This document shows, in pieces, positions 4,481 through 5,989 of a stretch of 8,294 nucleotides of DNA (positions within the stretch are counted from its first letter, which is position 1; each line of letters starts with the position of its first letter). The notes below the pieces were generated by a model. The model had not been told where the DNA came from. It searched no databases and saw only the letters and a program-made list of their open reading frames with translations. The stretch lies in IMG/VR virus record IMGVR_UViG_2537561605_000008; one strand, written 5' to 3'. This DNA comes from a virus. Taxonomy: Duplodnaviria > Heunggongvirae > Uroviricota > Caudoviricetes. The translations under genes and the position numbers were made by a program.

Positions 4481-5989
4481 TGGCAATTCTTGATGATGTG
4501 ATTGGCGTTTTTTCACCAGGATGGAAAGCGGCAAGGCTGCGTTCCCGTGCGGTGATCCAGGCTTATGAGGCCGTAAAAACGACGCGGACACACAAAGCCC
4601 GGCGGGAAAACCGAACTGCCGACCAGTTAAGCCAGTACGGGGCCGTGTCGTTACGTGAGCAGGCCCGTTACCTTGATAACAACCACGATCTGGTTATTGG
4701 TGTATTTGACAAGCTGGAAGAACGGGTGGTGGGGAAAAACGGGATTATTGTCGAGCCACATCCGGTATTACGCAATGGGGCCATTGCCCGTGATCTGGCA
4801 GCGGAGATACGCACCCGATGGAGTGAATGGTCTGTCAGTCCGGAAGTCACCGGGCAGTTTACCCGTCCGATGCTGGAACGTCTGATGCTGCGTACCTGGC
4901 TGCGCGATGGTGAGGTGTTTGCCCAGATGGTTTCCGGGCGCATAAACAGCCTGACGCCTTCTGCCGGTGTTCATTTCTGGCTGGAGGCGCTCGAGCCAGA
5001 CTTTATTCCCATGACCAGTGATGAGAGCAACAGGCTGAATCAGGGCGTGTTTGTTGATGACTGGGGGCGTCCCGAAAAATATCTGGTGTATAAAAGCCGT
5101 CCCGTATCCGGACGGCAGATGGAAACCAAAGAAGTGGATGCAGAGCGAATGCTGCATCTTAAATTTGTTCGCCGTCTGCACCAGATGCGCGGGACGTCTT
5201 TGTTGTCCGGTGTGCTGATCCGCCTCAGTGCCCTGAAAGAGTATGAGGATTCTGAGCTGACTGCAGCAAGGATCGCCGCTGCTCTGGGGATGTACATCCG
5301 GAAAGGCGATGGGCAGAGCTATGAACCGGATGGTAATGGCAGCAAGGATAAGGAACGCGAGCTTACCATTCAGCCAGGCATTATTTACGACGATCTGAAA
5401 CCCGGCGAAGAAATCGGAATGGTGAAGTCGGATCGCCCCAATCCTAACCTTGAAACTTTTCGTAATGGTCAGTTGCGTGCCGTGGCGGCGGGCAGTCGTC
5501 TGAATTTTTTCCAGTACAGCGCGCAACTATAACGGCACTTACAGCGCCCAGCGTCAGGAGCTGGTTGAATCCACTGATGGCTACCTGATCCTGCAGGACT
5601 GGTTTATTGGTGCCGTCACCCGCCCGATGTATCGTGCCTGGCTGAAACAGGCTGTGGCATCCGGTGTTATCAGGCTACCCCGCGATCTTGACCGTTCTTC
5701 ACTGTATACCGCGGTGTATTCCGGACCGGTGATGCCGTGGATTGACCCTGTTAAGGAGGCTGAGGCCTGGAAAATTCAGATTCGTGGTGGAGCAGCGACA
5801 GAATCAGACTGGGTACGTGCAGGTGGTCGTAATCCGGATGATGTCAAACGTCGGCGCAAGGCCGAAATTGATGAAAACCGCAAGCTGGATCTGGTATTTG
5901 ATACCGATCCGGCCAGTGATAAAGGAGGCAGCAGTGCCGCAACGAAACGACAGGAGCCGCAGCACACCGACGACCAGTCCGAAGAATAA
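4480..5989 (+). pseudogene. Portal protein, lambda gpB family, interrupted by a frameshift near 5519-5523
   Basis: ATG at 4480 overlaps the gpW stop (TGATG). Frame 1 reads MAILDDV... to a stop at 5530-5532. The homologous sequence continues in frame 2 (...ARNYNGTYSAQRQELVESTDGY... to the stop at 5987-5989), which lines up with the lambda gpB C-terminal region ...QLSRNYAQMSYSTARAS... The junction is in the run agcgcgcaac. Confidence 0.75.

Follow-up and report, generated by a model that had tools for sequence, protein, structure and literature searches.

Lambdoid Portal Genes and the Sp3 Prophage

The portal protein of phage lambda, gpB (PDB 8k38 and related entries), is assigned to Pfam family PF05136 (Phage_portal_2). 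Its gene lies in the head cluster, where the C and E genes are separate and no ClpP-capsid fusion is present. Closer to the gene considered here are the portal genes of phages mEp460 and cdtI and of prophages in Escherichia coli O55:H7 DEC5A and DEC5B and O157:H7 LSU61. These are PF05136 genes of 1509 nt (98.3-100% identity), flanked by terminase, a W-like gene and a ClpP-capsid fusion, and each encodes one 502-aa protein. They belong to working phages or to less decayed prophages.

The closest described element is prophage Sp3 of E. coli O157:H7 Sakai. In a survey of the Sakai prophages, the portal of Sp3 was listed as defective ("D"), as was integration, and its repressor and replication entries were marked "-" (Asadulghani et al., 2009, Table 1; PMC2669165). 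Excision was predicted to be impossible, and no circularisation, replication or packaging was recorded (Asadulghani et al., 2009, Table 2). The Sakai annotation has ECs_0826 and ECs_0827 at this locus and treats the latter, which corresponds to positions 5627-5989 of the DNA analysed here, as a pseudogene, "phage portal protein". The Sp3-equivalent element at the same locus of EDL933 is named CP-933K. From the pseudogene call and the listing of the portal as defective (PMC2669165), the portal defect is already known. A 2020 closed-genome paper on atypical O157 strains mentions neither Sp3, CP-933K nor a portal (PMC7175801). What is new here is the exact lesion, its corrected position, a count of carrier genomes and the timing of the event after the LSU61 stage.

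The window, by which we mean the whole stretch of 8294 nt under analysis, matches the O157:H7-type chromosomes NZRM3614, AC-3 and AC-5 at 100% over its full length. Positions 1-8122 are 99.9% identical to EDL933 and Sakai, with 7 SNPs (at 28, 84, 174, 1596, 4176, 6394 and 6974, none of them in the portal gene). The matching region adjoins ybhC within a lambdoid prophage, and in the Sakai record, where it lies between ybhC and ybhB, it bears the label "prophage Sp3, lambda-like phage". Locus and gene order are the same as in the Sp3/CP-933K references, and the portal region is identical, frameshift included. By sequence, the window is thus identified as prophage Sp3/CP-933K of E. coli O157:H7, inserted at ybhC-ybhB (lambda attB). 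Its portal gene almost certainly carries an ordinary, genuine pseudogenising frameshift in a cryptic lambdoid prophage.

The type represented by the window (NZRM3614, AC-3, AC-5) differs from the Sp3 and CP-933K references by the 7 SNPs, by ISEc8 inserted at 8123 and by a stop codon within gpJ. The last 172 bases of the window have no match in EDL933 or Sakai; in NZRM3614, ISEc8 transposase genes stand at the insertion and the rest of the DUF2190 gene lies beyond them. NZRM3614, AC-3 and AC-5 are the only records with a 100% match to the ISEc8-carrying window, and F1273 matches at 99.9%. Since these alone match, the insertion is a sub-lineage marker.

Architecture of the Portal Region

The features of the window are collected in Table 1. 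The broken gene occupies the expected place in the head cluster, in the order terminase large subunit, W-like gene, portal and protease/capsid. A slightly longer ORF translation of the W-like gene (4262-4477) gave no Pfam match. The protease/capsid fusion gene begins inside the portal gene and shares its final 56 nt; ribosomes on the portal message would now stop 400 nt upstream, and any translational coupling of the fusion gene to the portal would be lost.

Table 1. Annotated and inferred features of the 8294-nt window.
Feature	Position	Strand	Basis
Lysis cassette, end	upstream of 1004		annotation
Small terminase	1678-2169		annotation of identical region
Terminase large subunit	2169-4271	+	annotation of identical region in NZRM3614 and EDL933
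W-like gene (head-tail adaptor / DUF6148), ending where the portal begins	4268-4480	+	annotations
N-terminal portal fragment	4480-5532	+	341 native codons, 9 out-of-frame codons (NFFQYSAQL) and stop
Lesion, AT at 5504-5505 in place of G	5504-5510	+	alignments with mEp460, N53, O55:H7 and FCI48
C-terminal portal part in the +1 frame	5504-5989	+	last 160 native codons, ending at TAA 5987-5989
Alternating GC run AGCGCGC	5518-5524	+	unmutated; same in mEp460, N53 and O55:H7
Premature TAA in the shifted frame	5530-5532	+	translation
ClpP-like prohead protease / major capsid fusion, 675 aa	5934-7961	+	Pfam CLP_protease and Phage_capsid_4; annotation
DUF2190 head gene	from 8048		annotation
End of ISEc8 (IS66 family), inserted in the DUF2190 gene	8123-8294		divergence from EDL933 and Sakai exactly at 8123

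Two intergenic stretches deserve a brief description. Between the capsid stop and the DUF2190 gene, positions 7983-8036 contain two hairpin-like sequences, GGCCCGTAAGGGC and then CAGCCCCTGAACGGGGCTG; the former precedes a T run and resembles an intrinsic terminator. The other stretch, 675 nt (1004-1677) that separate the lysis genes from the small terminase, is unannotated in every record examined. The ORFs at 1214-1519 and 1299-1688 had no Pfam match and were treated as chance ORFs. A cohesive-end site is expected somewhere in 1004-1677; the left end of the mEp460 record gave no position for it, the small terminase gene being the first in that record.

The portal frame opens at ATG 4480 and runs for 350 codons to its stop. 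In the +1 frame, a TGA at 5501-5503 is followed by a reading frame that remains open from 5504 to the end of the C-terminal part; its translation after the TGA reads ...FSSTARNYNGTYSAQRQ... (IFSSTARNYNGTYSAQRQELVEST...). Both translations agree with the original prediction, which held that the frame from 4480 stops at 5530-5532 and that portal homology goes on in the +1 frame to 5989. The two frames are open together over 26 nt (5504-5529), and a change of frame anywhere in this interval joins the two portal parts. Deletion of one base at any site within it produces a single 502-aa ORF, as anticipated from the proposal that removing one base would restore an ORF of roughly 500 aa.

The N-terminal fragment matches PF05136 with an E-value of 8.2e-74 and a score of 249 bits, above the gathering cut-off of 32.9, which places it in the lambda-family portals. 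It covers model positions 3-324 of 354; the intact orthologue covers positions 3-354 of 354 and scores 276 bits. The C-terminal fragment alone matched no Pfam family at E <= 0.001 in a Pfam scan, and it is therefore recognisable only together with the N-terminal part. No uninterrupted ORF of about 500 aa spans the whole PF05136 domain in the window, the remainder being in the +1 frame. The window carries a portal pseudogene rather than a portal gene.

The N-terminal fragment is labelled "phage portal protein" in EDL933, NZRM3614 and other genomes. In PGAP annotation it starts at GTG 4408 and overlaps the W-like gene by 73 nt; in intact portal orthologues the annotated start is the ATG that corresponds to 4480. 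As the longer version is seen only where the gene is broken, it is probably an artefact of annotation. An antisense ORF of 252 aa also crosses the site (4768-5526, minus strand); it had no Pfam match and was treated as a chance ORF.

Site of the Lesion

The window was aligned with the intact portal genes of mEp460 and N53 and with that of O55:H7 USDA5905, which is intact at the lesion site and broken elsewhere. Where the intact genes read CTGAGTTTTTCC, the window reads CTGAATTTTTTCC: a G has been replaced by AT at 5504-5505, with a net gain of one base, and the T run passing through the lesion has grown from T5 to T6 (5505-5510). The residue change at this point is Ser342 to Asn (S342N). The native protein here is ...AAGSRLSFSSTARNYNGTYS..., and deleting one T from the window restores it with S342N as the only difference. 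When AT is replaced by G in silico, the resulting 1509-nt gene shows 100% identity to the portal CDSs of O55:H7 DEC5A and DEC5B and of strain FDAARGOS_946, all three intact and annotated as non-pseudo. The repaired gene is 99.9% identical to those of O55:H7 CB9615 and RM12579 and of O157:H7 LSU61. At protein level, the intact orthologue matches the solved lambda gpB (8k38) across the lesion site, where gpB AAGLGVSYEQLSRNYAQMSYS aligns with the native portal sequence given above.

Alternative Readings of the Frameshift

The original prediction had placed one extra nucleotide in the alternating GC run, about 15 bases downstream of the lesion, with a junction of ...FQYS[A]RNY.... A deletion in the run does restore the 502-aa ORF like one at 5504-5505, and the alignment to lambda gpB, from which the placement came, cannot separate the two positions. 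The gpB sequence used for it was correct (VSYEQLSRNYAQMSYS). Its identity of about 22% over 231 residues is too low to locate the shift inside the 26-nt interval, or even to within ten codons, and for that reason the GC run seemed a plausible place; gpB was too distant to serve as a guide and close homologues were needed. These give a different answer. The heptamer is unchanged in the intact genes of mEp460, N53 and O55:H7, the O55:H7 gene differs from the window at this site only at 5504-5505, and repair at 5504-5505 is the one that returns complete nucleotide identity to intact O55:H7 genes. Removal of a base from the GC run would give ...NFFQY(R/S)..., which no homologue matched, in place of the conserved SFSSTA. 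The junction read from intact relatives is ...GSRL(S>N)FSSTARNYNGTYS..., and there is hardly any chance left that the extra base sits in the GC run. That the sequence itself might be wrong, the real genome being one base shorter and the portal ORF continuous, was the other half of an either-or left by the original prediction (inactivating mutation in a cryptic prophage or assembly error). Sequencing errors are typical of homopolymer runs, and singleton frameshifts do occur in this gene: an A insertion in E. coli FCI48 (see below) and a 1-nt deletion in an A run of O55:H7 USDA5905 (GGGAAAAC, equivalent to window 4604-4607). The latter serves as a control, as it is found in one record only of 5,426 and is either private to that strain or a mistake in sequencing; USDA5905 keeps the ancestral G at 5504, and its frameshift is not that of the window. 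The lesion in the window behaves otherwise. Its 80-mer (5468-5547) was searched in complete E. coli genomes at a threshold of at least 99% identity, which at 80 nt means zero mismatches, and it occurs exactly in 287 independently assembled records, EDL933 and Sakai among them; both references are identical to the window across the whole portal region. The strains listed among the 287 records are each O157:H7 or unlabelled with the same context. A homopolymer miscount would moreover not produce the G-to-A substitution that accompanies the extra base, and both the Sakai annotation and published work record the defect. The presence of one exact 80-mer in 287 records points to a fixed clonal mutation, lineage-wide in typical O157:H7, and not to an assembly error, a reading to which we give almost no credence; with the decayed state of the prophage, the mutation half of the earlier either-or is the one that holds.

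Two further readings accept the extra base and give it a function or a natural place. PGAP calls two "phage portal protein" CDSs in O157:H7 genomes, as it would if the two segments were naturally separate genes in this phage group; the earlier proposal had itself named such an arrangement in related phages as grounds for abandoning a frameshift. The relatives exclude it: 16 of 16 full-length phage matches (mEp460, cdtI, Tritos, Ayreon and phi458 among them) span 1509 nt without the extra base, and the 79-nt uninterrupted form is present in about 1,560 other E. coli genome records. The mEp460 record has one 1509-nt portal CDS, as do the prophages of LSU61, DEC5A and N53, and the second piece has neither an independent Pfam match nor a start codon at the homology boundary, so that the likelihood of two genes is practically nil. 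Functional recoding has slightly more in its favour. The lesion itself created the T6 inside the two-frame interval, where tRNA-Phe might slip +1 on AAU UUU UUC, or transcription might slip, and a leaky full-length S342N portal would result; re-pairing from UUU to UUU would give ...LNFSSTARNY..., one residue away from the native sequence. A homopolymer run within a two-frame overlap is what the site has in common with prfB-type programmed +1 sites and with slippage-prone homopolymers. Unlike prfB-type sites, the portal T6 is not conserved: the related phages and the about 1,560 records have a plain ORF with T5, and the two-frame arrangement is a recent derived state. Among the homologues seen, one carries a frameshift of its own, and all others outside the window's lineage have one continuous ORF. 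Stimulators are lacking as well: nothing like a Shine-Dalgarno element occurs in the bases ahead of the run (GGCAGTCGTCTGAA), the zero-frame codon that enters the A site next is an ordinary UUC, neither a stop nor a rare codon, and the RNA of 5495-5600, downstream structure included, folds no better than shuffled sequences (z = +0.21). Efficient transcriptional slippage in E. coli is known to require runs longer than six. Sp3, for its part, does not excise, replicate or package (PMC2669165). From these comparisons the portal frameshift resembles a mutation and not a recoding signal; programmed recoding is not supported, and functional recoding of any kind seems distinctly improbable.

Mutational Route and Decay of Sp3

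For a pseudogenising frameshift, the event to be explained is the change of one G at base 5504 into AT, which requires two elementary events, a substitution and an insertion. The most economical route would be the gain of one T by slippage in the T5 run together with an adjacent G-to-A change; alternatively, an A may have been inserted and the G then changed to T. Three single-step intermediates (the substitution alone, CTGAATTTTTCC; a T gained by slippage alone, CTGAGTTTTTTCC; and an inserted A alone, CTGAAGTTTTTCC) were sought in the O157 background among the 5,426 complete E. coli genomes at >= 99% identity, and none was matched, so that the route stands as a probable one. Translation from ATG 4480 would depart from the native frame at codon 342 and, after nine incorrect codons, terminate at the premature TAA. 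The resulting 350-aa fragment would lack the final 160 residues, among them the end of the PF05136 domain. Because its portal domain is truncated, this fragment should not build a working portal ring, which in this family is a dodecamer at one capsid vertex.

A separate frameshift at the same spot is seen in the unrelated strain E. coli FCI48 (urine, Colombia), where an A insertion turns GAG into GAAG (CTGAAGTTTTTCC) at the equivalent of window 5503-5505. It splits the portal at the same stop codon, and the gene has 17 other differences from the window. With only one such record, either a second genuine mutation at a vulnerable site or a misassembly may be responsible.

The portal lesion is one of several in Sp3. 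In EDL933, Sakai and NZRM3614 the integrase is frameshifted, bet is truncated and the antiterminator gene is partial, and the repressor, cro, O and P genes are absent from the Sp3 annotation of these three strains. Other essential phage functions of Sp3 have thus been lost, as in a cryptic prophage. In typical O157:H7 the truncated bet abuts ninE. The strain type of the window has further lesions, the ISEc8 insertion and the gpJ stop of NZRM3614, which are not found in EDL933 or Sakai.

An orthologous prophage at the same locus in O55:H7 DEC5A and O157:H7 LSU61 shares the lpxR, Q, lysis, terminase, tail and nleB2 genes with Sp3. Both retain a LexA-family repressor, a cro-like gene, cII, O, P, ren and ninB, along with an intact portal; measured against the intact orthologues of DEC5A, DEC5B and LSU61, the lesion in the window is derived. 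Since the module is kept in LSU61 and DEC5A and bet is joined to ninE in typical O157:H7, a deletion has taken out the entire immunity/replication module, on the branch that also acquired the portal frameshift. SNP typing puts LSU-61 between O55:H7 and both O157 branches (PMC3309690). With LSU61 as an intermediate and its portal intact, the comparison places the frameshift on the branch leading to typical O157:H7, later than the O55:H7 and LSU61-like stages, with clonal inheritance thereafter.

Decay has also taken other courses. In the DEC5A prophage the O gene is frameshifted and the capsid gene is interrupted by an internal stop codon, so that lesions differ by lineage: O and capsid in DEC5A, the portal deletion in USDA5905, and ISEc8 and gpJ in NZRM3614. 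Such a pattern is what would be expected for neutral decay of an immobilised prophage. When the portal broke, the prophage would already have been immobile, or becoming so, through the integrase frameshift, the truncated bet and the loss of the repressor/cro/O/P module; on an immobile prophage there would be no selection to keep the portal gene. Sp3 presumably persists through its cargo, the lpxR gene and those of the type III effectors nleB2, nleC, nleH1 and nleD.

A residual activity of the locus may be imagined in two forms, both of which we regard as long shots. Ribosomal or transcriptional slippage on the T6 might make a little S342N portal, with Sp3 acting as a weak donor to the "defective prophage pool" of O157:H7; or a stable 350-aa fragment might hinder portal assembly of related incoming phages.

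Significance of the Portal Allele

For the function of the prophage, the finding has little import beyond correct annotation: the break is at 5504-5505 and not in the GC run, and the two "phage portal protein" CDSs called in hundreds of O157:H7 genomes are the halves of one pseudogene. For the history of the organism, the allele is a clean clonal marker, intact in O55:H7 and LSU61 and broken in typical O157:H7. It marks a dated event in the degradation of a prophage that carries effector genes (nleB2, nleC, nleH1, nleD and lpxR) and is now fixed in the chromosome.
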